From the NCBI GenBank assembly GCA_000934665.2, contig JYFJ02001992.1, positions 1 to 64,000 of the forward strand: a stretch of DNA of 64,000 nt. Direction: 5' to 3'. Of this stretch, positions 31,210 through 59,800 are shown piece by piece; the stretch's first letter is position 1; each line of letters begins with the position of its first letter. Below the pieces are notes generated by a model that worked only from the letters and a program-made list of their open reading frames with translations, did not search any database and was not told where the DNA came from. The stretch is from Catajapyx aquilonaris. Lineage: Eukaryota. The translations under genes were made by a program, and so were the position numbers.

Positions 31210-31211
<2 letters not shown>

Positions 31212-31270
<59 letters not shown>
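31212..31270. repeat. (CAT)n microsatellite
   Basis: Visible tandem CAT. Confidence 0.95.
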
Positions 31271-31271
<1 letters not shown>

Positions 31272-31480
31272 CGACATTTCCCTATAAGGGGTAGTCAGCG
31301 ATGACGGGAGCCACAAGCTAACCAAAAATATGAACTAAATTAAAACTTGTAAAAATAAACCTATATAAATAATTAATGTATCCTGATAAACGCGTTGTTT
31401 ATTTACAATGAAAATGGTGTAACGGAAACACCCACAAAGAGTTCCCGTAAATGCGCAATTTTAAATAATTCTCGGTTGTA

Positions 31481-31812
31481 CAGGGTGTTTCAACGGTTTT
31501 GTCCGAACAGTTATATCGGAAAATTGCACGTAGCTGCTACTTTGTAAGAAGTGACTGGCAAACGGTGATTTTTCGGAGGAACGGGGAATATTCCCTGCGA
31601 ATCGTATGTTGAAGTGGCAGACGTGCTGCCCGCTGAAAATTGAGGGACAAGCCTGGAAAAAAGAGGGTCACACATGCCATGGGATGTGTGACCCTCTTTT
31701 TCCCCATTCCCCACTCATCCGGCAAATCACCGGTTGCAAGTCACTGCTTACAAAGTAGCAGCTACGTGCAATTTTCCGATAACTGTTCGGACAAAAAAGT
31801 TGAAACACCCTG
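31481..31812. mobile_element. CAGGGTG-ended MITE with about 90-bp TIRs and an internal hairpin
   Basis: ta-cagggtgtttcaac...gttgaaacaccctg-ta; internal aaaaagagggtcacacat/atgtgtgaccctcttttt. Confidence 0.88.
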
Positions 31813-31842
31813 TATATGGGTACATTTGAGGAGCGTATAATT

Positions 31843-31978
<136 letters not shown>

Positions 31979-34900
31979 CATACACAAAAGTGTATTGTGA
32001 CCTACCCTTTAACATGAATGTTACGCAGTAGTTTGCCAAACACTATTATATGGGGCATGATTATAATTATATAGATTATCACTCATTAATTTAATTCCAA
32101 TGAATAGAGTGCACACAGATCAGTCGCTAAATTAATTAACATGTAATTTTAACAATTATGGATAAAAATAGGACACCAACATGGCATAATTCGTTCATGT
32201 CTTTACGGAGTCATCAGTCCTAGTAATAAGGGGAAAAGTTCCAGGAAGAATGTATCAAGTCTTACAGTTAGTATCTTCATTGTGGATTCTCTCAAAAAAT
32301 CAATTTCCAGTGAGACAACAACCTGGCAGCTTCCATCACTTTCCGCAATGATATTTTTTTGGGGTCACGTTTGTGGACAGTGTGACCATTTCAAGAGGCT
32401 CCTGTGACTTGCCATTTCCCCCCCCCCCCCTTAATCACTTCCTGAAATTGAACCACAGCACTTCCCAACCCACCCCCACATTTCCACTTGACTTTGAAAT
32501 AAATATGGCAGTTTCCCGCAGCTTTTTTGCCAGGAATGTAAACCGTCTACATATAGAAAAGTCGTCTCGAGGGCCTTCCTAATTTGTTTCCGGAACCCGT
32601 GGCTTATTTTCCCAGACCAACATGCAATAACTTATTTATAGTAGGCCATTATACCACCAAGAAGACTTCCTCAGCATCTTTTTGGCTGTCAAAATAAAGC
32701 CAATCGCTTAGTTCTTTCCTTACAACATTCCTCATATCCTATACCAGGAAGTCGTTATTTCAGAGTGTCAGATCCTGACCTACCTAACTGCCAAACCTAT
32801 CTATTAATCCCGAAGTCCTACAGTATTACAACTCACGTGAAGTTCGCAAATTGATTCTCATGGACGTCAATGGGGGAAATAGGGTAAAACGATGCCGTTA
32901 AGATCGTGTATCTATGTTATGACCAGTGGAGTGAATCGACCAGTGAGGATCTGGCAGCAATCCATATAATTATAGCCAATCCGTCTGGCTCTTATTTGAC
33001 CACGGTGGTTAATAAGCGTGCAATGTGGGGGTACCATGGTATGAGTAGTGTTGAACTTGAATGTGTTAGCCTTGGTACTGCTCTTGATATGATTTGAAGG
33101 TCGTATGCGCAAGAAGGCAACAAGGCATAGTTATGCGTTGCCAGCTTGTCGAGTGGCTTTGAATGGCAGGTTGGATAACTGTCAACTTCACTGGTGGTCA
33201 CCATACATAAAGTGCACGAGTATATCCATATCTCAATGCATGTTATTAATTTGTCTACTCCCACACTGGAGGTCGTCAGTCGTGGGCTGGGTCAGGGGCG
33301 GGTCAGAGGTCTTTAGCTATCAACAGGTCTAATTACATATTGCAGGCGAGGAGACCAAATTGCCGACAGGCAGATCAATTATCTACTTTACCCACACGCT
33401 TATTATTTTCTGCGCTCTAATCGATAATGCCCCGGGTTTTTTTTTTCTTTTTTTAAACTTCAAAACTTAAAGAGAGGAACTGTAAGTTCACAGAATACCG
33501 GTAGATGAATTCTGGTTGGGACATGGCGGAAGAAAATTGCGCAACTGACAAAAAAATGTGGGCAACTGTAACAGGAGCCGAAGCCAAGAGCGTAGTCATT
33601 CTTTAGGGTTTCCAAACACTAGCCACTTTTCGACACCGTGGACATTTCGAGAAGGAAACAAGTACCGAGGATGACAACATTTAGTAGCTGTCTGAATGGA
33701 TGGGGATATAGGCTAACCTAGAAATAAAAATAAGTCTGATGGACTCAAAACAGTATCAACTGATCATAAACTTACAGCACTTGATCTATATAAAAAAGCT
33801 ATTCATTTCTGCAAAATATTGACGTATGAACTGTCACAGAGAAATTCATGATATGTATGTTGCCAGTTTCGTACTTTTACTAGCACTTATCACCAGGCCA
33901 TATTTGGCTAGAGCAATTCGCAGCCCATCATTTTCGTTTTGGAAAAAAAAAAAAATCTTCTAGTGTTTAGACAGGTTTCAATCTCATGGGTAAATTGGGT
34001 GCAAAACTGAACTAGGCGACGAGCAAGTGTTTTCTCGCAGCGCTGAAGTGCGTTAAGTGGAGATGACTTGAAATACAACTGGCGGGGGGNGGGGGTAAAA
34101 GGATCGAGAAAGCAAGAATTGAAATCCGTCCAGATGGTCGTGAAAAACATCCACCTGCTAATTGGCAGACATGGCAAGGCGTCAAGCACGTAATCAGGAG
34201 ATTTTTATCCGCCGTTGCAACAACCTGCTTCCAGAACTATGCATCGCTTCAGCCAATCGCACACAAATCGCCACCAACTCCTATCTCCAACGCTGCGTCC
34301 TCCAAGAAGACACATTCATGTGTGCACACAACCTGTTGACAAAGCTCACTCATAAATCTAATGGTCCATTTGTTTCTCGGCATTCCGGCCTTCCAAGGCA
34401 GCGATGTCATCTCTCTTCCTTTGTACTTTCTTTTTTGAGAAAAAAATATTGATATATATTTTCAGCAAACATAGACAGCCCTTCCTTATAGTTCCAACAC
34501 TGCTTACAGTTCCAGAATATCAACCAACAGTAAGTTAAACCTACTTAGTTACAACAGAACTGATTCGAGGAAGTATCCTGAGATGGATTATTCAAGCCAA
34601 TATTCAACTCTAACATGACTACTTCGTCCATACAGTAGTTTCCTTGCATATTGCAACACTAAATTACTCTCTGCAGTCGCATGCCTGTATACCACCAAGA
34701 ATTTCAGAGAACTGATCGTTGCCTAGTTTCAGGAGCAATTTCCCCACAGCCAATAATCAGTTTCCAACCCTGTATATCTCAGCCAATCACCTCGTCAGCT
34801 TCTTTCCAACGCTGTTCTTTTCCGTCCAATCACAATTAATCTGAGGCTCTAAACCCTAAGCTCCTGGACTCTAAACCTCCATTCTCCATTTACTAACCCC

Positions 34901-36609
34901 TCCCTCTTCTCCAGCTCTTCTCCAGCTCTTCTTCCTCAGCCACCTCTTTTCACAGAGCTGAGTCCCAGCTAATTCTAAGGGTCAGCCCTTTTTGATCAAA
35001 GAGATGGGGAGGATGGGGNGGGGGGGGGGGGGGGGGGGGGGGGACACGACGACACTTGATGGGTGGAAAATCCCAGATTGTCCACGGAGTTGGGCGTCGC
35101 CCAGAAGAAGAGAAAAGGAGAGGAGACAAAAAAAGAAGTAGGCAGAGAAGAGAATGGGGGCAAAAGGGGATAGGCATAGGAGTCAGGGGAGGCGCTGGCA
35201 CTTTTGGATAAGTCCTCTTTCGGATCAATAGCAGGCAGACTCACTCTGGACCACAAGGGTCTGTGGCAACTGCTCTTATGCCGCTACGATCAATGTTCTC
35301 CTGGACCTCTCTTCCACACCCATTTTCCACAAGGAGAGGTGGGGGGTATTTCACCTGAACTTAAGTGGTTCAGAAGATGCCAGGCAGAACATGCCAAGCG
35401 ATCAATCTGTCCGAGGGAGTGAGAATACAAAAGCAACGTGTAGGCCGGACAAGGTTGACCATGAGACACTGTTTTGGTAACAACAACGGGAGTCGCATTT
35501 TGTCGTATGATGCTATAGTATCCAACATACTGGACCAAGCCTCGAAATCAGAAATAGGTGGGTATTACGTGAGTTTTTGGTACGTAGCGTAACACTCTGG
35601 CCCAGCTCCCAGGAATGTTGCGTATGTGACGCAGCACACCGGAAGAACACCTTTCGAACCTGAACTGCTCTGAGCAAGAAAAAATAGGCCATTGACAGTG
35701 CTGCGAATAATGGTTGCCAACAGACTAATGAAAGGAGGGGGGGGGGGGGGGGNAAAAGGGCTTATCGTCGGAGCAATAACTGCCACTCCATTGTTCCTGA
35801 GGACCCCTAATAGCGGATCAGCCTTTTTAAGGGTGGCCATCTTGGCTGAATTTTTCAATCGGTGCTATATACCTCCTCATGGAGCAATATGGCTTGATAT
35901 AACCTCCCCCTCCCCCCAATCTTTTTGGCCTTATATCAATCCCCCCCCCCCTTCCTGGTGATGAAATTCATGCGATGGCCACTTCTTGCCTGCAGGGATG
36001 AGGAAAAACCCGAAGCCTGACCGCTTTGGAATCAGTCCAGGATCCTAATCAACTCTCTTGAGAAGTGACGTCGTATGAGGATATTTGGTCACTTGAGCCA
36101 AGGTATTTTGTTTCTCGCAATGGCAGAAAGATCTGCTTAATTTTAAAATCTTGTGATGTAGGCCAGTAGTGGGAAGAAAACCGGAACCTTCCGCAAAAGT
36201 TACAGATCTGCAGAAGAATGACGTCACAATGTGGTTCAGGTGATGATGTCAGCATTTTTCAGACTACATAATCCACTCCATCCAAAGGCTTACGTAGGAG
36301 TAGGTTTTTAAAAGTTATTGGATGATTTAGGAGCTAAAATTTTAGGTTGGAAATTCCAGGCATAGAGGCTCTTTATAATAGGGTGGTAGAAGGTTATTGA
36401 CATGTTAAAACATGGAGTCCACCAATTCTATGCTTGTCTCACAGGCATCTTGTAAAAGTCAGCTATGCTAGGATTTTTCGGCCTGAAATTTATGATCCTA
36501 AAGATTTCCATGGGCTTCAGTTAATTACCTCATTAGGTGATCAAATATCCATTTACAGCTCTATCTTGATGCAATGGTATTTTGGTATGATAATAATAAG
36601 GGCTCAACA

Positions 36610-36916
36610 CCGAAGCAGTTTGGAGTAGGGGATATGGTGTCCGACTGCTAATCGGGAGGTCCTGGGATCAAATCCCGGGGCCGGAAACTCTGACTGTGGT
36701 TTTCTGTGGTTTCCCACGGTCCTTCCAGGAAAATTCCGGAGTTGCTTCCGTAATTAATAGGCCACAGCTGCTTCCTTCCGTCCCTATCCTATCCCATAGC
36801 ATAGAGTACAGTAAAAGGAAAAAGCAAAAGAATTCCAGGCAAAACAAACTTCCCCCCTAAAGAGCCGATGGCTGATAACGGGGTATGAATTATTATTATA
36901 TTATTATTATTATTAT
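36610..36916 (+). mobile_element. tRNA-derived SINE, full length, 17-bp TSD
   Basis: A-box-like tggagtagggg, B-box-like ggatcaaatcc and an (ATT)n tail; TSD ataataagggctcaaca at 36593-36609 and 36917-36933. Confidence 0.9.
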
Positions 36917-39407
36917 ATAATAAGGGCTCAACAGAATTAACTAGAGTGACATTCGAGAGATGATGACTATTATTCTGGGCTTTAACTTTGTAGACAGTGC
37001 GTTCTGATTAAAATATCTGTATAGTGGTTAGCGATTTTTTGTCACGGATATTATTATTTTTAAGTAGTTACTCTCGATAAAGGTATAATTCCATTGGTTA
37101 TATAAAAAAATCATCTCCTAGATTGAATGGCACTCATTCAGCCCCTGAATTTGATAACTTCCCAGCTGGATGCGAGTGAGTTCTTTTCACCCACTGTAAC
37201 CTGAGGTCAATGATTAGACCAATATTTCGAAGTTTTGACCTTCCTGCATTAGTTGACAAACGAACGAACCTTCTGAGTTTACAAATTGTAAATTGGGAGA
37301 CACTTTATATTATGATCAAATATTGCGACTGAAGTTATGCATCTGTAATAATTAATAGCATAATTAGTAGCAGTTTTGCATCTATTTATTTAAAAAATCA
37401 TTATTGAGAGACATCATTAGCCGCATAGATTGGATACTCTCGTAATTAGGGATACATTGTGTCGTGTACAGTACTCACAGCACATAATCACGAGTAGGCT
37501 TCATTGCTTCTTTATGGAAAATAATTGCTTGTAATCATGAGCAATCTTCATTAGATGCATGCTACATTTGAAAGAGGAGTGACAAATCCATCCAATTAAC
37601 ACTATTTTTCAAAGTTCAATTTTTGGAGATGCGTAACAGCGGGGGTAATGACGCGAAGGCCTACTTTCAAATGTAGACTACACTAAGACTTTGACAAAGC
37701 AACACACCATGGCGTGCTAAATACCTAACTGAATTAGAATAACTCACGGAATTATTCAGCAATCTGAAAAACTTCCGAATGTCTAGGAACATGGAGTTTG
37801 TTTACATTATGTTTAAACAATGTACAATTATATTTTAATAGTTTTCTTCTGAATATCGCATCTGCATTATTTTATAAATGCCTGGTATTGACGATGAATA
37901 AAAATATAACATACTCTATTGCCAAAAATAGTCACTCCAGGGGAGTTTATGTAATTTATAACAATATCGATATTTAGTTCCAAGAATTCCGCTTCAACAT
38001 GGTACCGCTGGCTCTATGAGTCTACGAGCCAAATACGTCCACAATTATAAAAATATGAATTAGAAATATGAATATTTTCATTAGTTCATCTTTAATCACA
38101 CCTGTCGAATATTGCACAAAACGGACCATTTCTTCTCTACAGCGCCTAATAAGCACTAATGAATTGCAACAAGCGCCTAATGGGATGATATTGTGTCGTA
38201 ATATAGGGACCACACCGGACGGCCGTGGCCTTGACCCGAGCTTGCCAAGGTACTCCCGGCAACCCAAAATATCCCCATCCCGGCAGACCCCTTTTTCTTT
38301 TTCTTCCCCATTTCTTCCCCCTGCCACTCCTCCCCCTCCCTTCTTTTTTCCCGCCCGATTTCCCCGATGGGGAGCTCGCTGTCGGCATTGTCCGCCTTGG
38401 CCCACTACCAAGGCCTTCTGGACGGCCCTCAAGGAAAAAGAACCCCTCTATTTCCAGACACAGCATCCCACGCATCCCATCTGCCACCAGACGAATTCCC
38501 TTTGAATCATTCCCACTTAAATCGATTCAAATCTCCCTCCCAAGGCGTCGGCTGCTTTTGCTCCGTTTCTTCGTTTTTTTTCCCCCCTCGTTTTCCAAGT
38601 AGGCTAATCCTCCTTCTTCCATTTCTTGGATTCCACTTTTCCAGAGGGTTCGACTCGATTAGATAATCCGTGTTTAGGACGGCCGTTGGGATTCTTTCCC
38701 CCCCCCNTTTTTTTCTTCCTCCCCACTTTTCTCCATCTCCATCCCCGTTTCTTCCCTCTCATTCCTTCCCCCTGTTGGAATCAAGGAGCTGGGTCCCTGC
38801 CACCTGGTGGGAAAATGGCGAGAAACGAAATCTGGCAGAGAGAAGGTTCCTGCACTTGCTGCCATCTGACGACATCGCTACGATCGATCAAGTCATTAGT
38901 TGCTTTTTTTATTTTTTTACCATGACGATTTTTTCGTGGGAATTTGCACTTTGCGCATGTGACGAATCTGATTTATCAAACGGTATCAATCATGAGAATC
39001 GGAACCCACGAATTATGGAGGCAACAAACCCTTTTACGGATAACGTCTTGCTGACTAACATGTTTTTTCAAAGCATGAAAGTTGCCATTAATATATCTTC
39101 CTTCGTCCACCCCACCCTCCAAACCCCACCCTTCCCTAAAACACTGATCAATAAGCCATTATTGAATGAGAACATTTACATTATTCATGGTTCCATGCAG
39201 CGGATATTCGACAGGATTTATTTTTATACCACTGTCAACATAGTCTTGCACTGAATGACTGGATCGACTATTGGGAAATAGTGCGGTGAAAGACAGTCAC
39301 AGCATCACTACTTATCCTGAACTACTATCAAACCATGAGGTTCTCTTGTTCAACCGTTTGCCTAACTGCTAGGCGATACACACTGCGCCTGTACCTTATG
39401 CAACTGT

Positions 39408-39580
39408 TGACCCTGACCATGGTTTTCTGCGGATTTCCATGCCCAGGACAATTCCGGGGTCGTTTCCGTAAAAATAGGCCACAGCCGCTTCCTTCCCTAT
39501 CCCTGGTCCCATCCAATGGTGGTAATCCACCCCCCTAATGGAGCCAAAGGCTCTAGCACGGGGTATGATTTTAAAAAAAA
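39408..39580 (+). mobile_element. 5'-truncated copy of the same SINE, 15-bp TSD
   Basis: Shares ggttttctg.gg.tttcc, aataggccacagc.gcttccttcc and cggggtatga with 36610-36916; A-rich tail; TSD accttatgcaactgt at 39393-39407 and 39581-39595. Confidence 0.88.
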
Positions 39581-40065
39581 ACCTTATGCAACTGTAATGC
39601 AGTCCAGAAAAAAAGAACCTGTACCAATAGTAATTGAGTGGAATTCCGCATTTAATTATTACTAGATTCAATTCATCCTTGGAATGGACTCATTTCCAGT
39701 CTTCATTACCGGTCAAGATTATATTCCTCGATCCTTAATCCCATATATTCCCATACGCAACATGCACTGTTGCATGCCTGTCTCGATAGTGTTTCCGCCT
39801 AGGAATCGTCCAATCTAGAAATGAGCTATTCTCACCCGCTTGTGCTCCAGATTAATTATTCAAAATTACACCTTGTTTATTGTATCAACCTACAATAACG
39901 GCCCCTAACGCAGTGTATGCGGAAATTAAATATCAGGCCAGTATGCTAATAGCCCCCACTAGTTTTATTAATGTCCTTTGTCAAGCTACGAGCATCGTAA
40001 AATTAACTACTAAGTGACCTACTTTCCCGCACATCCCGCCCTTCAATACCCTGCATACTCACCCG

Positions 40066-40067
<2 letters not shown>

Positions 40068-40124
<57 letters not shown>
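40068..40124. repeat. (ATT)n microsatellite
   Basis: Visible tandem ATT. Confidence 0.95.
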
Positions 40125-40126
<2 letters not shown>

Positions 40127-41437
40127 CTGACGTCAGCTCCTCTGGTGTGAGCTGTATGAGTTATACTTATCCAAAATTCTCGACTGCATCCCTTCAACTC
40201 CCATTTCGAAAAGATGTTTTTTTTTTTTTTTTCCTAGGACATGAACATCTGTCGGCTCGAAAGCTTCCAGATTCGCAAATGAACCTCACGTTCGGTACAT
40301 ATCCAGTTTAAAAGGACTCCTGTAAAAAAATTTCGCCCGTCCACAGGCATGACGGCCAAATTGCCTGTGGCGCCCTCGGGGAAAGACTGCTGACGTTAGT
40401 CACAGGTTCCGCTCTCAATTTTTCTACCTCTTTTTTTTTAACCATCCTCTATCTAACCGAAGTAGTGACCCAACGGTGCTCTAGGTAGATCTGGCTTCTA
40501 TCCAATGGCGACTAGCAAAAAAAAATTCTAGTCCTACCTTATTTAAATAAAATGGATATAGGATAGTATGGAAAAGTGCCAGTTTTGGCCCACATTGGCG
40601 ACATAGAAATTATATCCAGATGAGGCTGGGTATGCCGACACGTACCAGAATGCAACGAGTGCGCATTCCAAGGCGCAAGTGGCGTGTGATTGGCCCCCTG
40701 GAGGAGTCAACGTGAAGCTATTTTCTGCCACGGAACATGTGTTAGATATTTATGTGCTTGACCAATTTGAGCTCGGAACCTTCAACACGTACGCTTCCGT
40801 ATAGCTACAGTGTTTGGCGCAATGTGCGTCATATCTCGCAATATAATTTCGACGCCCGCTGGCAGTTATTACACCCATTAACTGATCAGAAAGGAAGAAC
40901 GCGGTCTAATTTACTACTCGTAATGATCAAATGAAACCGGGAAGAGCAGACAACGTTTTTGTTATAATTGCTTCTCGGGCTGCTAAAAAACAACTAGGTC
41001 TGATGTATAACATTGGGTCGAAAAAGGGTAAAAGCTACATCATGCCTTGATCTGCTTGGCTGTGTCTACACAGTCATTCTTAACGAAGAAATCTGACCAC
41101 AGGCTAGTTGGGACATCATCAGTCTTCCTCTACGGTGCGCGGTGCCTGCAACGGAAACTCCAGTCTCACAAAACGGGAGTACGTGTGTTCGGAGGTTTCC
41201 GTATCGACACCACCTCAACCACAGCTACTACATGAGCCAGCATGGCAACCAACAAAATAATAACGCTCGACATAAATTGAATTTAAATTTAAAAGGCACA
41301 TAACTAAGGTGCAGATTTTTAGGTTCTTAAAAACCCTCAAATAGGTAGGCATTTAGGCCCTGAAAACAGTCCAAAAGAAGCTCTTAAATAGGCACTATAA
41401 ATCAAGCTGGTTCTAATATTTTAATTTTTATATTTTA

Positions 41438-41966
41438 CTAGCTTCGGCACCCGCGTTGCCCGGGAAGAAATGAATGAAGGGAAAACACCTGCCAGTATCC
41501 CCGTCAACTGTGTGTCTACCTTATGTGTGTCTGGCCACCAATGCCATCTGGGGTCTTGCTATTCCAACACCTTGAACCTTTCCCGCCTGCATGGGCGCCC
41601 GACGTGGCAAATTTTTGAATTTCAGGACGCGGTTTGCCGCGTTCGACGCCGTTTGATTTTTTTTCAAAAATATAAAAATCGAATTTTTGAAGGTCGATCA
41701 CTGTAGTCCCCCCTTAATTACAATGACTTTTGACTTTTTTAGTTATCCAGGCGGGGGGGGGGGGGGGGCGNCTTGCCCATACGTGCGGGCGCCCATGCCC
41801 GCCTGTATCCTCCATCCTCTCCCGGCCTGGGGTGGAGCACAGATGATCTGTGCTCCACCCCCAGGCCGGGAGAGGATGGAGGTGTTAGGGGTTCACTACA
41901 GATGGCAGGCAAATGACGGCTGGCAGGCGGACAGACAGACAGACTCACAAACGGCTTTATTTATAA
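41438..41966 (-). mobile_element. Helitron-like element, copy 3, internally rearranged
   Basis: Same ends as 22928-23229, with unrelated filler at about 41590-41800 and a new palindrome at about 41809-41882. Confidence 0.8.
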
Positions 41967-44486
41967 AGAGGATTACAGCCTACTCTTGGCCATGCAATTT
42001 TGCAGCACAGTAACAAACTATCAGTTATTCCATATACCGGTATTCGTTGGTTAATCGCAGTTATTCGGCGACAGTTAAGATTGCCCCTCACGGGGAGCCA
42101 ATATGGCCGATAGAATAGCCGTCGGGCCGAATGTAGCAGCTTATTTAACGGCTATTAATAACCGTTCTTTCGTGTCGCAATAACGGTTAACGGCATATTA
42201 CCCGGGATCCTACACATCAACCGCTTCTGCGCTCGTCACAGGATGAAGTGGGAGGGATTCATTGACCGGAAAACCTGCAGAACTCTCGAAAATCTTACCA
42301 AACGGTGTCAAAAAGGTCGAAATAGGCACTAATAGGCCATTTAGGTTCCAACACCCGAAATAGGCATTTTTAGGTTCTATAAAACTGCGATTTTTGAGGT
42401 CTTTGTGTTATGAAACGGATAGATATTTTGGTTCCGGTGTTCTGCCTACAAAATCTCTACACATAACCCTTCGACATAATTTAGACATAATTGTAATCAC
42501 TAATATGGGAGTCAATTTGAATCAATCTGCAGCACCTTTCAATTGGATAGGTTCCTATAAGTGTTAACCAATGATCACGTTTCATCTAACGTGACGTCAG
42601 CGCAAAATCAAATCTCTCAAACATGAATTTGAGCCAAGCCACAGTCTGGGAAGGGAGGGATCCCGGAACGAAATTTGCATAATTATCGGACCTAAGTGCT
42701 GACCGTGACGGGGTAATTAGCCATCGATAATGTGACCAGGGGATGAAAATGGCAGACGTTAAGAGAACGGTTCAGATGGCGGCTTATAAATCAAGGTTGA
42801 GCTACTTGTGGAGATTACGTCACTCAAGAAAACATTCAGTTGAACAAATCAAAATAACGTTTGATTGAATTCAACCAATAAGCTTTTTAAATATTGTGAG
42901 GGATGACCTGAGGGGGTCAACCCTCATATATATTTTTTAAACGGAGCAACCGTTTATTAGACCGGCTTGCTTCCCGGCCACAACACAACTCTCTCTACAA
43001 ACGAGCTCCCACCAGGTCCAAACCAAAGCGCGCGCAGGCGCCCTCCTGCCATCTAGTGATGGGACGTCACAAAGTAGTTTAAAATTCTGATTAAAATAAC
43101 TTAATTTCTCTCAACCATTTTCAGCCTTCATTTTGATATATATTCGCAAAAGTTTAAAAATTATGGAGGAGCGTTGGATACAGCAGCCTCCGCATAAACA
43201 GTAATTCTTGCAACGCACTTTGCAAAACAAGTCTCGAACCCATAATCAATGGCCTTAATTAGGAACTAAAATTGCCAGGATGTTTGCAAATTTCTCGCTC
43301 ATTTTGCATTCCTGTTTCGTTGGAGGCAGGCAGATTGGAGGAAACGAAAAGGGTATAGGGTGGGTATACACTTAAAAAAAAAAAACACTGGCTGATATCC
43401 AACTCTTGGTGTTTAGTGAAGTCTACTATAGTGTGCAGTAGTGGTGAGGCATTCATGAAGCGTGATGGAGATTGGGTGGTGGTAATTTATTCATTGCAGA
43501 CGGAGAGGGTGAGCGTTACTGCTGGGGGAAGGCAGAAGGCTGTGGTGAATTATTAATCAGTGCCACCCTATATTTTTACTTGCGTCTTGTGTTAGAAGAG
43601 GTGCAATCATAGTGGGCACCACAATCGACTAGTTTTTATTGTACACCCTATTCTATATAGGGAAGCGTCGCAAAAAGGCGGGGTAGGGGGTTCGCAATTG
43701 GGGTAACAGGTGGTGTACCAAATGAAACTGGATTTATATCTAGTACTATAGAAAACGAAAAAAAAATATCCGGCTGAAATCTAACCCCCCCTCAACATAC
43801 GGCTGTAAAAGCAATTACGGTTGCTCTCTCGTAAAATGTCTTCAATTTTTCGCCACGAAAATGGAAATCTATTTGCGAGGCACAAACATTTCATTCCGGG
43901 CTTGAGAAGACTTGCTGTAGGCGTCAAATTATTAGCAAGGAGCCCAAGTTAAGTAAATACCACCCNCCCCCCCCCAAAAAAAAGAGATCAGGATTTCTGA
44001 AGAAATTTTTAGCAAGACGGTCATTTTCTCTCTACACACACCCACACACGCCCATGACCGCCTTTGGGGAAAAAAAAACTCATGTGCGAAATACACGTTC
44101 CATCTTAATACCGCACAAACACGCAACATGCAGATCACTCAAAAGTAACGCTAAAATTACAGAGACATATTTGGTGGCACTTGCAAAAAAAAGGAGATCA
44201 AGAAGGCGTAGGGTCACCTGTTACTTAAATGGAAATTCGATTTCGGTTTTTCGTGCTGTGTGAAGCACATCGGATGCGGTTGGGATGAGGTCAAAATGGG
44301 AGTGATGAATCAAAGGCCATCCATCACGATGACGTCACTTCCGATATCCTCCTACACTTATTCGCCTCTAAAAGCTATTAACTCAGTAGGAGAAATGTTT
44401 CGACCAACCTTCTGTCATGTCGCTTTTTATCTTTTGAGGGGCGGGTTTGAAGAACCGAGGGGCTTTTGTCACGGATTAATCACCCA

Positions 44487-44521
44487 ACTTACCTGCAACA
44501 GAGAAAAACATATGTGATTAG
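44487..44521 (-). other. Candidate recursive splice site (ratchet point)
   Basis: Minus strand ctaatcacatatgtttttctctgttgcag|gtaagt: branch motif, pyrimidine tract and CAG directly followed by a perfect donor; junction at 44493/44492. Confidence 0.7.
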
Positions 44522-45072
44522 AGATGCATATTCATAAGTACATAATATATACAAATTAGATTTGGGCTTCAGAACCTGGTTTGGTGCACATAACCATTTT
44601 ATGCGATACCAAATGTAACTTACTCTCTACAAAGGCAAACTAGCCTCAGGGGGGTAATAAAATAAAATAATACATTCATAAATAAATATGCAGTATGTTA
44701 TAAATGCAGTGAAACCTGTTTATAACGGGAGTTTGAACAATATGGCTATTATCAATATATTTCTGTCGAATATAATATGAACCTGTTCAGCATGGAAATT
44801 TTTAATAAACATATCGATTCAGCCATATACACATTTCCCTGTATTATATCACATTAATAATAACGACGAGAGGTAAATACGTGGGAATAATATTTGGCTC
44901 CCTGGAAGTGTCATGAAATGCACCAGGATGGCGCCCGAAATGACTTCCAAAAATGGCACATAAAAATATTTGGAGCTGCTGCCCTCCAACGTAGAAAGAG
45001 CTAATTAAGCCATAACCAGTCCCCGCCTGGTCTCTTGTTAACTTGGTCCATTCCACACACGGTCCTCTTTGT

Positions 45073-45104
<32 letters not shown>

Positions 45105-47502
45105 ACAATCCAATCAGCTTCCTTTCAATTTTTCCAGCCCCATTTCATGCCCAGAGTTTATCTGCGTATTAACGCCCCTGTACTTTGCAGCCATAAATTA
45201 GAATTAAAATGGATGTTGAGATTCCGGAGTTCAATTCTCCATTAAAAGCGACCTCCACTTCTAACGTATCGATCTGAACCTCATGCTATTGGAAAGAGCA
45301 AGTTACTTTTACCCCCCCCCTACTATAGCCCTCCCTATAAGAAGCGAACTGCCTAACCAATTAAGAATCTCGTTATGAAGTTATGGTTCTGAAGAAGAAG
45401 AATAAAAAAAAAAGTTTGAAAGAATTTCGAGCTGAAGGTCGTTTAAGGATAGGATTTCTTATTCTTTAAAATAAAAAATGTAGGGTAAGAAAATAGATTT
45501 TAAAGAAGTGGTTGAGAACACCTCTTGCGAATGTGGTGAAATCAACAGCTAACCTCGGGTGTCTTTCAGGGGTGTTTAATTGCCTCCAAAGTAAATAGGC
45601 AATAAAATTTGCATTCACCAGACTCTGGGCCATCAACTCAACAACCCGTGTCCTTCTAATCGGCTTTCTCGCATTAGCAAATCCTCCCCCGCCACCAGCC
45701 ATTTGAATATTGGCACTAACTCCCCAGCCATGGACACCAGCCTCTACACGTTTTTGAAACCTCCCAGGAGGAATTTTAGTCTCGATGGAAATGTACCTAG
45801 GTATATGATAAATAAAATATGAGGCAAAAACATGCATGGGTTTTTTTTTTCTGGCGGATCACTCAGGGTATGTGACAGTTGAATGACGTGAATGGGTTAT
45901 GAGCGTAACTTTAGGGAGATGAAAGACTTGGCTAAACAACTGTTATGTACTCGTACTTGATCAAAACAGTGACCTTGATTGGAGGGGACAAAAACAGGTC
46001 ATATCCGTTTGTATCGGATGTAATCATCTTCGATGCCTTTTGCTATGTGAATAGAGTATATGGGAATACAAGAAGGGCTGTGACATCATGTGGTTTAGCT
46101 TGCACCAATACGTCATTACTTGGCCTCGTCGATGTTGACACAAATAAATTTGTAACTGAAAACATCTGTTCCTCTATTTAAAAAGAAAGGATTTGATTCC
46201 TTATCATTTTAGTACATAGCGTACGTTCACTGGTCTTTCTACAACGTTATTTGTAGATAAATTAACTGCTCTTTTAACTGTGATCCATGCTATACATTGA
46301 TGTGATATCAAGCAGCACATTTTAGGGACAGAAAAGAAACATTTCTGGAGCGATATCTATTGCAAGAGTTTGTCAACTACGCAATACTGCGTTACTGTAT
46401 ATGTATCATTTCAAGCATGGTGTTGCCTACTTTATATTCATGAAAATTACAGAATAATATTAATTAAGCACGTTCAGACGAGTTTGAATGGGATGACAGA
46501 TGGTATGCAACAGTAAGTACGTTATTTACAAAAGCAAGGCCATTCTGATTGCGGCATACTAAATTAGCAAATGTCAGCCCGAAATACCATAGGCCCGATA
46601 ATATTAGCTTTCTGCATCTCCCACACAGACAACTCCTGTCCAAGTACCATGGAATATATTCTACTTAATCAGTATGCCATTATAGTAGCGCCTCTCTGCT
46701 GCAGCCTTATATCAAAATCAGCACGTGCTACATCACTATTACTATTCCAGGCATAACTTTGCCCTATCGGTACACCCTGTACCTGTAATGTCTGGACCAA
46801 AGTGTCCTAGGTCCCAGACAGCCTCGGTTACTAACCCTGAGCATTTTCGGAACAAGACCAAAAAAAAAATCCGGAGGTCCAGACACCGCAGACCACCTAG
46901 TGTCACGACAACAATTCGCCTCGTGGCCTCATAGCCAAAAAGTCTACTATAATCACATAATCCGTGCCGTCACATTTTTTTTTGTACCGGAACAGTCCGG
47001 TTATTGTGCAGTATCATTTGTCACACCTCAGCGCGATTTTCGGCCCCATTTTTCACTCCAGAATGTGACAAGGAAAAGCTCCGCACAATCGCTTGTCAAA
47101 AACGTCGCCCAAAAAAATATAAAAATGTTCTTAAAAAAAAAAAGAAGTCAGGAACCAGAACTCATCTGGTCTATTTCGGTGTCCTTCCTACTCGCGGTGA
47201 TCCAAAAATAAAACTTTTTTCGCGCCTTCTAATCGCGTCCCGGTTTCTACTCCTGGCGAAGACTAAGCCACCGAGAAAAAAAATACAAGACTTCTATACA
47301 AAGGTCAATATGTGGATAAAAACATTTATGATATTAATACATATATTTTGACCCCAAAAATGGTGCGAGATATCGATCCTAAATTATAGATTTCCAATTA
47401 TTGAAAATTCTAGGCGCATAGAACCACATTTTGAGGATTGGCCTTCTGTCGGATGCAGAAAATAGATTCCTTAGAGCCCCAGAATATCCGTTTTGAGACT
47501 AA

Positions 47503-47627
47503 GGGCCGGTTTCACCGAGCTTGGTATATGATAAAACCAGGTTTCTTTAGGAAAGTCCATACAAATAGATAGGGATTTTGAGAAATACCCTGGTTTTATC
47601 ATATACTGAGCTCGGTGAAACCGGCTC
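47503..47627. mobile_element. Small GGGCCGGT-ended MITE with TAA TSD
   Basis: taa-gggccggtttcaccgagct...agctcggtgaaaccggctc-taa; about 40-bp TIRs. Confidence 0.85.
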
Positions 47628-49142
47628 TAATTGACGCTATGGGAAATGCGCGTCAAACGTTATGCTTATAAGGTACCATCCCCTAGAGTATTGACTTCTG
47701 GGAGTCAAGTGGCAGCGACAAATCTTCCTTCCCCCATTTATCCCTCCAAAACTAATCTTAATCACGATCATCCGGAACACAGGAGATAAGTGGAGAATTT
47801 CTCCTAACTCCATTTTTATAGATTAAGATCCAGCCGCCTGCTCCTCTGAAAATTTTCTGAAAAGGCATCAAAAGCCAAGTTCGTTCTAGAGATTCAAAAG
47901 CTGCTAAATGGAACAGGATATATGCCTCAACGAATCGAAAAGTTGGGGGGGGGGGGGGGNGCTCAAAGGATCATTATGACCTATTCTTTAGGGGTTCTGA
48001 GATCGTTACCGGTACACAATTAATCTTAGCACCAACGTTAGATCATTTGACCTCTAAGGAACCACACTTATGGACCAGGTGTACGGTGTATATGGATAGA
48101 GTCAGATGACCTCCAGCTTTACTTTTCGATCATGTCACTTCTCTTCCGTGTCAGGTAGAAAGCACGCGACGGAAGCAATTTCCCGCCCAGCTTTTCAGCG
48201 TCAGCCATTTTGGACAGCAGGCTTGGGGATGACCACTCGCACATGACGCCCCGTAGTGGAAACTTCTTGCAATTAGTGAGATCGCCGTTCATTTCGACCC
48301 CCTAGACCAATCCTCCGCCCCAACCATCCTTTCTCGCCCGTCGCGTGAGCACCAATCATCACTTTGGGTCATTTCCTACGGGGATACTTGTCAGCTGAGA
48401 AGATTTAGCAGTATCGCTATAGGAATGAATTGTGCCAGAGGGGGAAAAAAACCTTATAGTATTGTGTTTATAGCCATTTAGTATGACCAGGCTGTAATAT
48501 ACTGTGTGAATGAGGAAGCTGCACGTTAAGTGCAAATTGAATGCTCAATTGGGGCTCAATTTTGGATCAGTTGGTTAATGCATGTGCATAAACGTTATTA
48601 CTTCCAAGATATTCGCAAAAAGTACTGGTATTGAAATTGCTAACGTCATAATAACGCAACCAAACCATTGTAATTTACGGTGGCGACTTGGTACCGTATC
48701 ATCGCGTAATCCATATTTATTTACTGCCAGAGAGGAAGTCGGTAATACATATGGGGTAGGCTATTCTTAAAAGTTGTCACCTTGTCGTTATTAACAGTTT
48801 TAACGTGAACCGTAACAAAAATCAGAAAGTATTACGGAGCACGACTGATTTTTTGATTCTCAATTAATATTCATCACTTCAATGCTTTGGACCCAAGAGG
48901 TTGATAATTGACATTGGTGTAATAGCGTATATTACAAGGCGTGTGCATTGTAAACATTAGCCGAGCCTTAGTGCTCTTTCAGGCCCTCATTCCACATTTT
49001 ATCAGCACATCTTTATTTCTCCGGCCGTAAACAAACTGGAGGAGAAACAAATATGACAGCACTTAATAATGACAACGCGTTGTTACTGTTGTAAAAGAAC
49101 TTGCACAGCTATTTCCTTCCCGATCTATTAAATTTATCTCAC

Positions 49143-49330
49143 CTATCCGCTGTCGCTAGGCCACACAATAAAATTGAAGAAAAAAAAGACAAAAATTCCA
49201 GAGATATGTAACCAACATGTTTCACATTCCACATTGCATCGCACGCAATGACATTCCCGGTCACTATGCGCTTACATATTATCATATCCTCCGATCTGCC
49301 TGGAGACGGACTTGAACGACCGCATCCCAT
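49143..49330 (-). CDS. Candidate alternative N-terminal exon (MGCGRSS...GLATADR)
   Basis: acgATGG start context, 62 open codons, phase-2 donor GAT AG|gtgaga. No homology recognised. Confidence 0.3.
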
Positions 49331-50763
49331 CGTCTCCCATGCCGTATATACTGGCCACAGCCGCCATCTTGACACCGTCTTGACTTGTATCCTCAAGTTC
49401 CAAGGTCACGTCATCCTCCTTGTGTCCACTCCGAACCGGACCTTCCGCATTGGGGGGGACCCCATTTCACGGAGCGTCCATCCCCACCATAACCACAACA
49501 CAACTGTTTCGTGTGGGGCGCATGCACTGCCCTGCCTACATGTCAGCCATGCCACGTCGCTTCTGGGAAAAATTAACGGGGGAGTAGGGGGCTGTGGGTC
49601 ACTAGGGGTCACAAGCAACCTGGACACTACCCTGGAGGCAATCCTCCATGGCGGCCCGACACATGACCAGAGTAGGCCTAGCACGCGTCAAATGTGACGC
49701 CATGACACCTCTCCCCGCCCCCTCCTCCCCACCCTTCCCTCTCTGACTGCTGGATCGCGGTGGTTTGAGACCGGAAGGCCAGGTAGTTCTGTGGGCCAGG
49801 TAGTCAGAGCGACAGTTCGCACGGGTATAGTCCCCTTCATTGATCCGGCGGGGAATAAATGTTTCATGCATGCCGCGGAAATAATTGATGAGGGGGGGCC
49901 TTATACAATCTTCTTTCCGTGGGCCCTCCGCATTTGGTAGGTTTACGAGCCTTCACTCCTCACTCTCCTACACACACTCAAATTGTTTTCTTTCTTATTT
50001 TTCACTCTGGTTCTACCGACCTATTCGTTAAGACCTTATACCGGATTGTTAGCGACAATTGGACTCAAATGGCGTGCTGGTGCAATATGCATAAGAACCT
50101 GTCCAAAGCAAGTGTAACTCAATAGCAGCTGGTCCGTCCCATGAGGCGGGTACTACAGAATTGATTTCAGGACATAAAGGAGTAGGACCAATAAACATAG
50201 CTAATGGGGAGTTCCGTCCCCCCTTTGTCCGATAGATACCCGATGTGATTTTGTAGCGAACCGGAACATATACATAGGCCACAAAAACCTGGTTTGATAA
50301 TCACTTCACCGGTCTCTGTGATTGGATAAGGCGTAGTTAATAATGAAGACAAAACGAGTCCTTTTTTCCTTCCTGTAGTTTCCTACCACTGCTGAATATT
50401 TGACCGCCGTACCGCTGTCCGTAAATATTCTTCCGGCATTGAGCTCCACCGCTTCTTCGTGAGTAATTCATTGACCTCACTTCATCCGCACAAAAGTCCA
50501 TCCCGGTTCCAAACTTGGGGCGGTCCATTCAAAATTTAATCCGGTTTTCACAAAACAACCCCGGAGCAGTCAAGTCCCGCCCAAAATATGCCCATGTTTC
50601 TGGTAGAACTTGGCCTGAAGGGGTCACTGCAAATTGTGTTTTCCATCTCAGGGCTTGGATTTCTCTGAAAGTGCTGCCACTGGTGGTAGACTTCCCAACC
50701 CAGAATTTGCTAACTATTTTTAAATTACATCTAAAAATCTAACTGTAGAAGTGTCTTATTATA

Positions 50764-51202
50764 TAGGGTGAAGGAAAACTCGCAGACAATCGCCAGGTAG
50801 ACTGATACTACTCGTAAAACTAATATATAGGTATGTACAATTAGTTTTGGGCTACTCCGTTGAATAGTTAATGCGTACGGCGCCGTCAAAGTTTCGTGAC
50901 GTCACGTCCGTTCCGCCAGCTTCAAAGAAGCAAAAGTCAGTTCGAGTGCCTCCGGTCCTTTGCCTTGGTCCCCTAACACATCGTTCATGTGCAATAGGTG
51001 ATCAAATCCCGTCAGAGTCAGAATCCGGGTACGACACCCGTGCACTTTTGTCGTTTTTGCCTCATATTTTATCAACCGGGCCACTACACTTTAAAGGTGC
51101 CGTACGCATTAACTACGCAACAGAGCCAAAAACGAATTGCACATCTCTATATTAGTTTTGCGAGTTTACCTGCCGATTGTACGCGAGTTTCCCTTCACCC
51201 TG
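50764..51202. mobile_element. (C/T)AGGGTG-ended MITE
   Basis: tagggtgaaggaaaactcgcagacaatcg...cgattgtacgcgagtttcccttcaccctg-ta. Confidence 0.8.
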
Positions 51203-51228
51203 TATACAGGACATCAGGCATCTCTGAG

Positions 51229-51500
51229 CGGCTAAGCTTTCGTATCGGGGGACCATGCACTTTTACCTATTCTCCTATAGGCGTGTACCTGCTGAAGGAT
51301 ACTGTGTACCTGCTGAACGATACTGTGAACCAGCTGAAGGATACTGTGAACCTACTGAAGGATACTGTGAACCTGCTGAAGGATACTGTGAACCTGCTGA
51401 TGAAGGATAAGCGTGTATCCGCCCGGAAGGAAGGTTAGGTCATGGGGTAGGTTGGTGCAACGTGCCCCTACTGCCACATTCGGTCTCCCATTACGAAAGT
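51229..51500 (+). mobile_element. Dispersed repeat containing a 21-bp minisatellite; related to 57348-57860
   Basis: ggctaagctttcgtatcggg...ttcggtctccc; tandem ctgctgaaggatactgtgaac units at about 51289-51400. Confidence 0.7.
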
Positions 51501-54500
51501 CCTTCCTCTCAGGGTTAATTCTGACTGTCAACCTGCAGATTAGAAAGCAGGCATGAAAGGAATCAATGGCAGTCATTCCTTCCAATCTGATAAGGCTGTC
51601 ACCTCCCGAATGACTGATGTGACCCGGCATGAAAAGAAGGCCGAAACTTCCTCCCTAATGAGTCGATGATTGAGACAGTCTCCGAATAGCTCCTCCCCCC
51701 AAAAACACTAGCAATTGACGTCATAAAATCCTAGAAAATGTCGCATTGTCTGTCCATTATTTTTGTTGACCGAGTGCCCACATTCCTCTTCAGATAGAAT
51801 ATGCGTGTGTACACTGCAGAGTATGATGCGCCCCAGAGCCTTTGCGTGTGGCCTGAGACTCAGGGTCAAGCTTCCATTGAGTGTCCGAAGTGGGCGTTCG
51901 GGTGGGGGCCATTTTGGAAAGGGGGGGAAAGGGGGTTTCGGTTAGAGGGGAGTATGGATGAGCGAAACTGACCGCACTCTCCCATTTCGCTCTATTTCAT
52001 AATCGATTCCGCAGGAAAGGCCTGATCTAGTTTTGCTACTCGCTCGATACGTAAGCGTGTGTGACACCTGAGCGATATGGTTTCGAGAAAAATGTATAGA
52101 TCCCCCCCAAAAAAATTGGGGGAAAAAATAGAAATTGTGGACATGCCATAGTCAAACAATAAGGTATTGAGGGACACATTTTTGTCATGCATGGTTGTGT
52201 AATATGTAGTTGAAAAGATGTAATAATGCGTGTCATGAGTGGGCTTTAAAATCGTATCTTTTATCAAATTTTTAGGGGGCGTGATGGTGTGCAGTCTGAT
52301 TACTTTGTGTGCGATTACGCAAGTGCACGGAATGTTGCATCGTAACAGTGTAAGGGGGGGTTATTTATAATATATCTCTAATTGCCACCACTGGTTGAAG
52401 TGAGACACACAAATGTTATGCACCCGGAGTTTATGTGACATGTCATGCCACAATGCACACTCACACTATGTCGTGGGTATACTAAGTCCAATTTTGGCGG
52501 TTGAGTTATTTACACCACTTAGTAATTTTCTGCAATGTCGCCTGGTGATATCCATTTTGTTATGAAGATAATGAGCCAGAAATTCAGGATTTTATGTCCT
52601 CACTAGCAAACAAGTCTTTGCTGTGAATTAACTCGAAACTGGGTTTTGTGTACTTGGTGGATTTCTTCTATTATGCGCATTTTTAAAGCTGATATTCTGA
52701 AACTGGGTAGCATCTGAGCCAATCAGCATGCATAAATTCCCTAAATCCCGTGGCTCACCGGATATTTGCCAAAATGCAGCTAACACTACTTTGTTTATTA
52801 AAAGCTGCAGTTCCCCAGGGTGTTAACATAGCAGCTTCCCATCAAGTGCCATAAAAATAGCAATGATTACGGACAAGTGTCTGCTCCCCACTTCAATTTG
52901 CAGGCAAGCAAATTAAAAGCCGTTTTGACGACCCCCCCCCCCCTTTCAATTCCGCCTCATAATTAAATGAACCCTACAATTATTTGCAATATCTGCATGC
53001 CTCCAAAAAATAAAAGGGCAACACTGCGCAATTTGCATGACAACACTAGCAGACTGAATGCAGTCGTGCGTAAAAAGGGGGGGGGGGGCAGCACTTGCAA
53101 CAACAATACCCCCCCCCCCCCAACGGACGCTAATAAAAGCGATATTGCAAAATCCTTCAAATAGAAAGTGTTGGTACAGGCCTCCCAGGACGAACAAAAC
53201 CGAAGGCTTTTACAAGTCCGGAAATGGCCTAGGAGACGTACCGATTTGGCAGCCGCAACCGGCGCCATCAGCAACACAAGGAACAAATGGATGGCCTCAT
53301 TTTTTTTTTTTTTTTTTGAATTTTCTACCCGTTTATTCGTTTCCCCCTAAGCCATAGAACTTCTAGAATTTTATTTTTCTGTTTTACCCCCATCGAATTC
53401 GATTTCCGAGTTAGGAATTTTTCCCTTCAACAATGCTGGGTGATTCTAAGATCACAAAAGGCTAACAACTCATTTCAAGCTGGAGTATAGAATCGGTTTT
53501 ATTTGGCTCCTGAGGCCACTTTTGATACTTATATCCCGACACGAACAGAAGTTTGCAAAAAAAAAAATGATGATATTTACTGCTTCAAAGACGCTGCATA
53601 AACCTACGTGAGCTTCTAATAAACGGAGAAGGACATTAAAAGGATTGTTCTTAAACGACCTCGTTTAATCGACGCAATTTATTCCGACAAAAATTATAGC
53701 AGAGTGGTAAAACGAGTCGTTTACAAGTTCAGGCCTTTAGAAAATGAGGGTTTGGATCCAAATTGTTAGCATTAGAGGTAGGTATCTCTATCAGAAATTA
53801 TTGGTTATCTCGTTCGTTTTCACGTTGAATCAGATCGATTCGTTTGAACTGGGTATTTCAGTTTCAAATTCTGCTTTTCCACTCCTTTAGCCTTAGGGGG
53901 AAGTCTCTTGATGTTTTCATGTACGATGGACTGGATTTATGAAAGTCTGGGGAAATTTTCATGTCGCCAGAGTACGGTTTTCTGAAACATTTTTTTTGAC
54001 ACATAGTGCACTTTAAAGTGAATAAATATCAAAAATCCGGAGATGAACAATTTATCAGTTGGTATCAAGTTACACGACACTTACAAACTCACATAGGTTT
54101 TCGTTAAATAGTCCGAGATAGGTTTCTATATAGGATGTCCTATCTCTATGCACTTTTGAATGACGGCGACCAAAAGCAGAGGGCACTAAATACCAGTTCA
54201 AATAGAGGAAATACCGTATTTAAATTTCTAACGCCACGGAATTCGTAAACACTGACGCTACTATTTCATTCAGTCTGTTTGCTTCTGTTAATTAATTACA
54301 AGTACACAAGCATGTGTGTAATCCTACACTGTGCAAATCCTTTGAACCTGCCCCTTCCAGCCAATGTTGACTGCACGACATAATCCTATATTCGGTTTGA
54401 AATTCGTGAGTCCGGTAGTAACAAGCGTAAATATACACTCTACAGAGGCCGATAATGGAAACTAGTTTTGCGACAAAAACCGCCCCATCAACTCTTCACA

Positions 54501-57347
54501 TATCCTTTTTTTTTTTTTACAAAAAAAAATCAAACATCATGCTGAACTCATGGAAGCTCAAATAATGCATCTGAAATACTGTACAAATTGATGTCGAAAA
54601 TTCGAAGGGAAGTGCTTGTGCTTACATTTACAACTGATTTGAGTGCATTTACTGTGCTTGAAAAGAGCGTTGGTGGAAGCAACAAAGGTAAATCAGGCCC
54701 TTTTCAAAAATAAAAAATGTGTTGGAATATAGCGTGGTCTAGAGGGCACTCAAGGTCTCATACTTTTTGAGTACGTAGGTTCAAATCCCGATAGGTCATC
54801 CATATGGGACAGATTGGATTAAAAGCTCATGTGAAAATGCACCTGCCAACAATCATCATTTTTTTTAAAACCACTCATCAACATTACGGAATGGCAGCAG
54901 CTTTAACTCATTGGCGACAGTTTGAGCTCCGATTTGGCCTCACCCTTTACATAATTTTTCATTAACCAAAGTTTAATTCACTCTCCCCCAGGTTAAAACA
55001 TGCAGCGATATCTTAATGATCTCCATACACCTGGCAACTCTGCTTGAAACACCGACCCTGTCAGCCACATTATGACATCACTTTGGGTGTGGTTAACTCT
55101 AAGAGGTTAGCCGATCTTCCACATATATGTCCCTCAAAACCTTTTTAAATTATTGAAACAATGAATGGGAAATCACTTTTTTTTGGAGGGGGGGGGGGGA
55201 ATAAGAAATAACAAGACTGCATGTCAATTCACACGAGAGTGATTCGATAAGACTTTTTCTCATTAATAGCTACTGCGGGNGTCATTCCCAAAGCTCAGTG
55301 GGGGTTACAGATGTCAAATCCGCAAAACACCCCCAACTTCTTTTGTTCTCCTGAAGCCTTTACTAGGGGGCAGGGTGGTCGAAGCGGCAAGATGGATTTC
55401 CCTGCTGGTTTCGAAGCGTCATTGACAAATTCCTCTTGAATGCAAGCCCAATGTTCCGGAAGAGATTGAACTGACAATCTAAGACGGGGGAGGAGGGGGG
55501 GGAGTGGTTGGGAGGAGAAATAAAATGTATTTTTGCTGGCCTCCTGAGCAAGGTCAACAGTGAAAGATCTGCGGAATTCGGGTCAAGATCGGAATACGAT
55601 TCACCTTTTCTTTTCCCCCAAATGTTCACTCGTGGGAAATGGAGCAGACCAGTATTTGGACCCTGTCGGGTATGCTCCTCGGCAAAACAAACGGGGCTTT
55701 TGCCAATACCATGGTTTTTCGCCTGCCATATATAGCAGATTCTGGTCCTATCAAATGCATTTTCTAGACACATGGATTCTAGGAATGAAGAACGTTTGAA
55801 CGTGTTTTTTTTTGTTGAAAATAGGGTGAGGTCAATGCAGGTACAGCAGATAGAATAACATTTGGAAGTGTCTTTTGCTTGCCACACAATGTAAATCTCT
55901 TGTCAACTTGTTACAGATTTCTCATGAAATATATAATAATTGTACCAATTTGAAACAATTTGCTTAAGTTACGTAATTACTTCAGTTAATTTATGTGACA
56001 AAAACAAAGACGTATTCTGAAAATTCTGCATGCCATGAATATGCAGAACCACTTTAAAGGTACGGTCCTGCCATAAAAATGTATTACACCAATATCGTTC
56101 CGAGATGAGTCATTAACGCATTTTATCTCAAAATATTTACGGCCCTGTAAATATATCGTAATAACGATTTCATGTCATTAGCTGCCATAGCGGCCAAACA
56201 CAACATGATTATTACCTCACACAAACAAAGCAAAATTTACCCCTCCCCCCCTCTAAAAATTGCATGAATATAATATATTTGCCGGGTTATGCGCACTATT
56301 GCGTCTCCCTAACAACGCACCTCATTATTTTAACTGTCCACACGAGCCTTCAATTATTATTCCCAGCCACGTTAGCTCTAATTAAACTTTGTGAGCAATA
56401 ACACGCAACTCCTGCGCAACCCACTAGGTCTAATCAATATGACGAATCCAATCGTTTTCCTGTAGTCATCAAACAAACATCAAACTCCAATCCGGAAGGT
56501 ACCGGTACGGAAAAATATATTTAAAAAAAATATACGTCGATCTAGAGCATACTAGTAGGAATAAACTAGTTTTTTTTCTCTCTCTCTCTCTTTTTTCCAG
56601 TACAGCTCCCCCATGCTGTGTATTTTTCAACCGTCTGAATAATTCAATATGGCGTTCCCCGCATATGCTTACATTGATCGTGCAAAGCTCGCGTGTACTG
56701 TAGGTGTGTGCACCGCCATCTCCAGAAAATGAGCGCTTGCATAAGGGCCCAATTGCAGTGTTTTTAACCCCTAACTCAACCTGTCCGGGGGTCCGACTTA
56801 ACCACTCACATTGTAAAACCAGCATCATAAAATCCGATTATAAACTCAGGACTAGGCGGTAAAAAAAAAAATAGCATGGAAGATAAATAACTGAGGCAGG
56901 TTCTCATGGGGTAATTTTGTTCCGGGTTTGTAAAAATGTTATCAGTCACATGAGTGTCACGATATGTTTCATGGAGGAAAGTGCAATGTTCCGGGCCTAG
57001 CTTTTATTCGACCCCACAGTATAGGGTAGGAATTAGGATACAAGTACCGATAGAATTATGCTATTACAATTGGGTAGTAAAATCTTTGTATTTAAACCTG
57101 ATTTTATGGTGAGCCGCCATTTTTGGAATGTAGATAGAGTATTGGTGCTAATTATCCTGCCGGTACAAGTTACAGATGTTATGGCGTAGTGTGTAGTGCA
57201 GGTAACTTTCCATAGGTGGTAGATGGGTGTCTGATAATGGGCTCGTAAATTAAACATCACTTTTCCAAAGTAATAGGGAAATGGAGGCGTAAGGTAAAAA
57301 GTATGTCAAAAAAACATATTTTTTCCCTTCTGAGGCTTGCATTAATT

Positions 57348-59639: not shown

Positions 59640-59800
59640 TGACTCGTATAGGAAAATATCGTATAGGAAAATAATGACAATCGTATATAGGAAAATAATA
59701 TGACAATCGTATAGGAAAATATCGTATAGGGAATATGACTCTCGTATAGGAAAATATCGTACAGGAAATATGACTATCGTATAGGAAAATATCGTATAGT
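59640..59800. repeat. Degenerate minisatellite (tcgtataggaaaata core)
   Basis: Core repeated several times with variable spacers. Confidence 0.85.

Follow-up and report, generated by a model that had tools for sequence, protein, structure and literature searches.

A candidate recursive splice site in the long 5′ intron of an arthropod Shaker gene

In the 64,000 nucleotides of DNA analysed here (the window), a voltage-gated potassium channel gene of the Shaker type lies on the minus strand, and the AG|GT boundary at 44493|44492 in its long 5′ intron, where 44492 is the first base after the AG, is on balance probably an intronic ratchet point (recursive splice site) of the Drosophila type. The Shaker candidate is a predicted site of an already described mechanism, recognised from its sequence features, and no prior report was found for the gene or the lineage. 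In the literature searched, which lay outside subscription journals, we found, judging by titles and the opening lines of abstracts, no report of recursive splicing in Shaker and no description of it in crustaceans. We also raise, as a tentative and rather doubtful extension, the idea that one ratchet point may serve several Shaker promoters in an arthropod outside the insect orders sampled.

Results and discussion

Structure of the gene and its source

Exon 1a, whose coding part (MQMILVAGG, 62847..62872, minus strand) matches by tblastn the insect Shaker isoforms starting MQMILVAGGS, ends in phase 2 at the donor GGG|GTAAGT. In the isoform that begins with it, an intron of 38,339 nt (24508..62846, minus strand, GTAAGT...ACAG) separates it from exon 2 (...CERVVIN, 24384..24507, minus strand), which is common to all 5′ variants and is followed on the same strand by downstream Shaker exons at ~20.8–20.5, 18.2–17.6, 13.8 and 10.3–10.1 kb. 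The earlier note on this DNA had taken 24508–62846 as the first intron of the gene; its length and ends stand, but it is not free of exons, as no fewer than two other 5′ exons of Shaker lie inside it. One of these is an alternative first exon encoding the ball peptide (MAAVASIYGMGDD...GGYDN, 49276..49367, minus strand), with its ATG at 49367 and a phase-2 donor, AT|GTAAGC. It was matched by 16 insect N-termini when the N-termini of 120 listed Shaker proteins were searched by tblastn, it keeps the reading frame when joined in silico to exon 2, and it carries ASIYGMG in this species. The other (..EFVAKWGLTPVLKPGQ.., 29726..29919, minus strand) has a phase-2 donor, GG|GTAAGC, and an acceptor that we place by guess at 29920/29919. 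Three database proteins share its encoded segment in their N-termini: one from a butterfly, one from a mosquito and a JGI Shaker protein, with E = 4e-7 for the last. Having no in-frame ATG, the 29726 exon must be spliced to some upstream partner, and neither a partner exon nor a start codon for it was found in the window. A further open frame at 45549–45702 (minus strand), starting MAGGGGGFANARKP, shows a weak likeness (E = 0.06) to the N-terminus MFAGGGAGFQKQSKP found in Shaker isoforms of Lepidoptera. The match proper lies at 45699–45661, 1.2 kb upstream of the candidate site, and by eye a phase-2 GAG|GTTAGC follows the frame. This frame, ~1 kb upstream of the candidate site, could represent one more alternative first exon.

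Over a stretch of 216 residues in exon 4, identity to insect Shaker was 87–89%, with none closer among the matches listed. A tree was built from 35 rows (34 chosen from the 120 listed matches, together with the window); in it, the insects were near-identical among themselves and the window fell outside them on a terminal branch of 0.13. The source is therefore an arthropod, probably from outside the insect orders sampled.

Anatomy of the candidate ratchet point

Across the site, the minus strand reads ...ctCTAATcacatatgtttttctctgTTgCAG|GTAAGTtgggtg..., with CTAAT, a pyrimidine tract, TT at −6/−5 and CAG|GTAAGT following one another in that order, and the arrangement that the earlier note had described on the Shaker sense strand (CTAAT, tract, CAG and then GTAAGT) was reproduced base by base. 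CTAAT is a branch-point consensus and here occupies 44521–44517 on the minus strand, the presumed branch A being its fourth base, 44518 (−26). This is a motif match only, and it falls inside the range of −36 to −21 in which most fly branch points are found (Duff et al. preprint, 10.1101/006163). Positions −20 to −5 (44497..44512, minus strand) form a tract with pyrimidines at 13/16 positions, including the TT at 44498–44497, and the portion from −20 to −7, TATGTTTTTCTCTG, contributes 11/14. The CAG (44493..44495, minus strand), as the acceptor half of the candidate ratchet point, directly abuts GTAAGT (44487..44492, minus strand), the donor that the first splice would regenerate, giving an AG|GT juxtaposition of acceptor and donor on the sense strand of the 62846..24508 intron; the predicted spliced join at 44492 would read exon|GTAAGTTGGG.... 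In the fly, where 197 ratchet points have been described in 130 introns, TT at −5/−6 is found at 196/197 ratchet points vs 44% of ordinary introns (10.1101/006163). The site at 44492 shows both the TT and the prominent pyrimidines of the fly tract, and among three ordinary acceptors of the same Shaker gene that were inspected one carried TT at −6/−5. Two details count against a ratchet point: there is a G at position −7, and many fly sites in the available portion of Pai's table have a tract richer in T.

Below the site, a weaker donor, AAG|GTTGGT (GTTGGT at 44403..44408, minus strand), matches the consensus at 7/9 positions and bounds a candidate cryptic recursive-splice exon of 84 nt (44409..44492, minus strand) with stops in 3/3 frames. 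After a phase-2 exon the join would read GGG TAA (exon 1a) or ATG TAA (ball exon). The earlier note had proposed both this weaker donor as the boundary of an 84-nt exon (44492–44409) and an in-frame TAA after a phase-2 exon, and in the sequence both stand as described, the latter as GGG TAA. Relative to the site, the exon 1a donor is 18,354 nt upstream and exon 2 is 19,985 nt downstream, in agreement with the earlier division of the intron into about 18.4 and 20.0 kb; the donor of the ball exon is 4,783 nt upstream and the 29726 exon ~14.6 kb downstream. No second copy of the region was found within the window, where it is single copy; no family was matched in an Rfam search of the site region, nor in a Pfam search of the open reading frames neighbouring 44492. 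With the repeat, Rfam and Pfam checks all empty, a repeat, an RNA family or a nested gene at the site was rejected.

Taken by itself, the GTAAGT could serve as the donor of an upstream exon that has escaped recognition and has its 3′ end at 44493, e.g. an alternative first exon, and the presence of several alternative 5′ exons within the interval, together with the weak insect N-terminus match of MAGGGGGFANARKP (45699–45661), lends this some plausibility. The frame above 44493 that is compatible with exon 2 is open for 44 codons without an ATG, though, and the remaining two frames are open for just 8 and 13 codons. Such a donor would also leave the branch motif, the pyrimidine tract and the TT unexplained, and we regard this explanation as very improbable; a coding first exon ending at 44493 was rejected outright, there being no ATG in the required phase.

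Rarity of the motif

A second explanation is that the site is a chance juxtaposition, i.e. a pyrimidine-rich stretch and a CAG that happen to abut GTAAGT and are ignored by the spliceosome. The short core of the motif gives this some weight, as the octamer AGGTAAGT occurs in four copies in the window, the two strands taken together (one copy being the true donor of the Shaker exon at 10.1 kb), and at least one sense-strand copy arose in 24% of shuffled introns. We defined the full motif as a pyrimidine at −3, TT at −6/−5, at least 11/14 pyrimidines upstream and GTAAGT, and modelled chance by 2000 dinucleotide-preserving shuffles of the 38,339-nt intron. The full motif appeared in 2/2000 shuffles, rising to 5/2000 once GTGAGT was also allowed (GTRAGT), which puts its chance rate in an intron of this length at ~0.001–0.003. 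In the real intron, with both strands searched, no site other than 44492 came up as long as the TT and at least 11 pyrimidines were required, whatever the other settings. It counts against a ratchet point that chance matches cease to be rare once the rules are relaxed: a looser rule (GTRAG and at least 9/14 pyrimidines, with TT kept) was satisfied in 4% of shuffles, and in 36% when the TT rule was dropped as well. The bare octamer is unremarkable; the full motif is rare.

Surveys of other genomes bear on chance in both directions. In the available text of Shepard et al. 2009 (PMC2773006), where the density of consensus sites in large introns is compared with that on the complementary strand, the counts per 100 kb are 2.20 vs 0.10 in fly, 1.03 vs 0 in mosquito, 0.81 vs 0.10 in beetle, 0.48 vs 0.12 in bee and 0.54 vs 0.07 in sea urchin. 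This 4- to 22-fold sense-strand excess in five invertebrate genomes indicates that most sense-strand sites there are not due to chance; vertebrate sense/complement ratios are given as near 1 in the same text. The Shaker candidate resembles these RP-sites in matching their consensus, (y)n ncag|gtaagt, and in its position within a large intron, on the sense strand; it differs in that the survey, as far as its available text goes, concerns introns >50 kb and genome-wide statistics, whereas here a single site lies in an intron of 38 kb. Such an excess is not universal in invertebrates: the accessible part of the locust genome paper gives locust ratchet-site ratios that are vertebrate-like, unlike those of insects, which would mean that the recursive habit is not universal in arthropods. 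A later locust paper, in its accessible part, treats a predicted site as functional from U2AF65 binding. We consider chance unlikely, albeit far from negligible, as an account of the Shaker motif. Our confidence that 44493|44492 is a ratchet point is set a little above even by the low chance rate for the intron, taken together with the placement of the species outside the sampled insect orders, which makes a recursive splicing habit less assured.

Scanning metagenomes with a 28-mer pattern from the site returned 0 matches, and a 20-mer returned one contig (L001), which was rejected as a related locus and taken to be a chance match, because its flanks do not align to the window.

Predicted pathway and competition between donors

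As a ratchet point, the site would be used in steps. Transcripts starting with exon 1a (donor 62846) or the ball exon (donor 49275) would splice to the CAG at 44493, a strong acceptor that would be recognised by exon definition, aided by the weak donor 84 nt downstream. This join would recreate a donor, GGG|GTAAGT or TAT|GTAAGT, which would then beat AAG|GTTGGT, and the remaining 19,985 nt would be spliced out to exon 2. The 84-nt stretch would never appear in mRNA; its inclusion would put TAA right at the join. The dimensions are those of fly recursive splicing: the host intron and both of its segments, as well as the shorter 4,783-nt first segment of transcripts from the ball exon, lie within the fly ranges of 11,341–132,736 bp for host introns and 2,596–63,580 bp (mean 17,953) for segments (10.1101/006163).

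Donor strengths were compared through a crude U1 duplex estimate (kcal/mol). After exon 1a, the regenerated donor scored −10.3, the same as the native exon 1a donor, against −6.5 for the donor of the 84-nt exon. After the ball exon, the regenerated donor TAT|GTAAGT scored −5.4, slightly weaker than the 84-nt donor, which counts against a ratchet point in ball-exon transcripts; the ball exon's own donor was weaker than the regenerated one at −4.3. It is therefore easier to conceive of the cryptic exon being included in the ball isoform. According to the available text of Joseph et al. 2021 (PMC8605326), a short cryptic exon, ~50 nt in length, lies directly downstream of each fly ratchet point; it is an exon the donor of which is generally weaker than the regenerated donor and the content of which is poorly conserved and unfit for mRNA; weakening the regenerated donor leads to inclusion of the cryptic exon. 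The candidate here is likewise short, at 84 nt, with a weaker donor and a content that its stops make unfit for mRNA, and both the donor competition after exon 1a and these stops fit the model of cryptic-exon competition.

Much of this anatomy would also suit an ordinary cassette or poison exon that runs to 44409 (84 nt) or to 44218 (275 nt) and is sometimes included, leading to nonsense-mediated decay, with GTAAGT unused as a donor. There is a good acceptor, there are usable donors at +84 (AAG|GTTGGT, 7/9) and +275 (CAG|GTGACC, 7/9), a stop would be met immediately on inclusion, and the crude donor estimates are close for ball-exon transcripts. A poison exon nevertheless requires the perfect GTAAGT in its first six bases to be a coincidence, and the available text on the fly attributes inclusion to the weakening of that very donor, so that an intact donor predicts skipping. 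We judge a poison exon improbable, and it overlaps the recursive reading more than it excludes it. An expressed recursive exon of the Ubx mI/mII type was also tried and rejected: the 84 nt are divisible by 3, but the stops in every frame, with TAA at the join, exclude productive inclusion.

The earlier interpretation had combined a recursive site with an influence on the choice among alternative first exons. The recursive site is supported as a probable reading, fitting the sequence features tested against published fly ratchet points, but the influence on first-exon choice is not supported. Both mapped first exons (62872–62847 and 49367–49276) are upstream of 44492, which means that a ratchet point there would act after promoter choice and would serve both. 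At most, the site could affect a later choice, between the 29726 exon and exon 2.

Comparison with known recursive splicing

The fly ratchet points of Ubx, kuz, Bx and luna resemble the Shaker candidate in the AG|GT juxtaposition, the TT at −5/−6 and a branch motif ~26 nt upstream, as well as in their setting, i.e. a long intron of a neuronal gene divided into segments near the fly mean, with a weaker donor bounding a short, stop-containing exon. In the fly, expression is highest in nervous tissue for 63% of the host genes, and the ratchet-point core is strongly conserved (10.1101/006163). Bx, in the part of its description available, also has alternative promoters upstream of its site. These fly ratchet points differ from the candidate in that their use and conservation are established, whereas the Shaker site is a prediction from sequence in an arthropod outside the sampled insect orders, and in that a cryptic exon of ~50 nt is typical there (again in the available text), compared with 84 nt here. 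The Ubx mI/mII exons and mammalian RS-exons share with the candidate an exon that starts with a regenerated donor and an outcome set by competition between two donors; they differ in being coding and present in mRNA, whereas none of the three frames of the 84-nt stretch is free of stops.

We take FBgn0003380 to be the identifier of fly Shaker, and expression of Shaker is not expected in S2 cells. Neither this identifier nor the word 'Shaker' was found in the supplementary tables of Pai 2018 (all 9 files), which derive from S2 cells, so the absence says little. In the sources available, direct evidence of recursive splicing in arthropods comes from Drosophila, and that for other invertebrates consists mostly of motif statistics and the one locust site. 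If validated, a Shaker site in a distant arthropod would widen the phylogenetic range of recursive splicing, and mutation of its GTAAGT should force inclusion of the 84-nt stop-containing exon and knock down all isoforms starting upstream. If placement in the Shaker 5′ intron proved common to insects, this would make recursive splicing of the channel gene an old trait of arthropods. The ball and ball-less isoforms alike would, if the reading is true, be tied to the removal of a shared long intron.

Other features of the window

Ten isolated single N bases occur in the window, at 16458, 34090, 35019, 35753, 38707, 41771, 43966, 47960, 55280 and 62309; the one inspected, at 43966, lies inside a G homopolymer run, and these bases may be artefacts of assembly or masking. 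A dispersed element is present in three copies (22094–22405, 22892–23227 and 41425–41706), the frames of which share PGVAREE(I/M)NEGKTPAS.., and a Pfam search of the frame at 22965–23603 (plus strand), which overlaps this element, matched no family.

There are 11 copies of the full CRE palindrome TGACGTCA in the window vs 0.59 expected (100 shuffles; largest count 3), at 20352, 20400, 36219, 40128, 42592, 44330, 50897, 51716, 60056, 61108 and 61705. The flanks of the copies are unrelated except in the close pair at 20352 and 20400, so a single dispersed repeat seems not to be their origin. Of the 11, nine fall in the 5′ part of the gene, where the alternative first exons lie, one of them 155 nt downstream of the candidate site, and the excess could reflect either CREB/ATF-type regulation or a genome-wide word bias.
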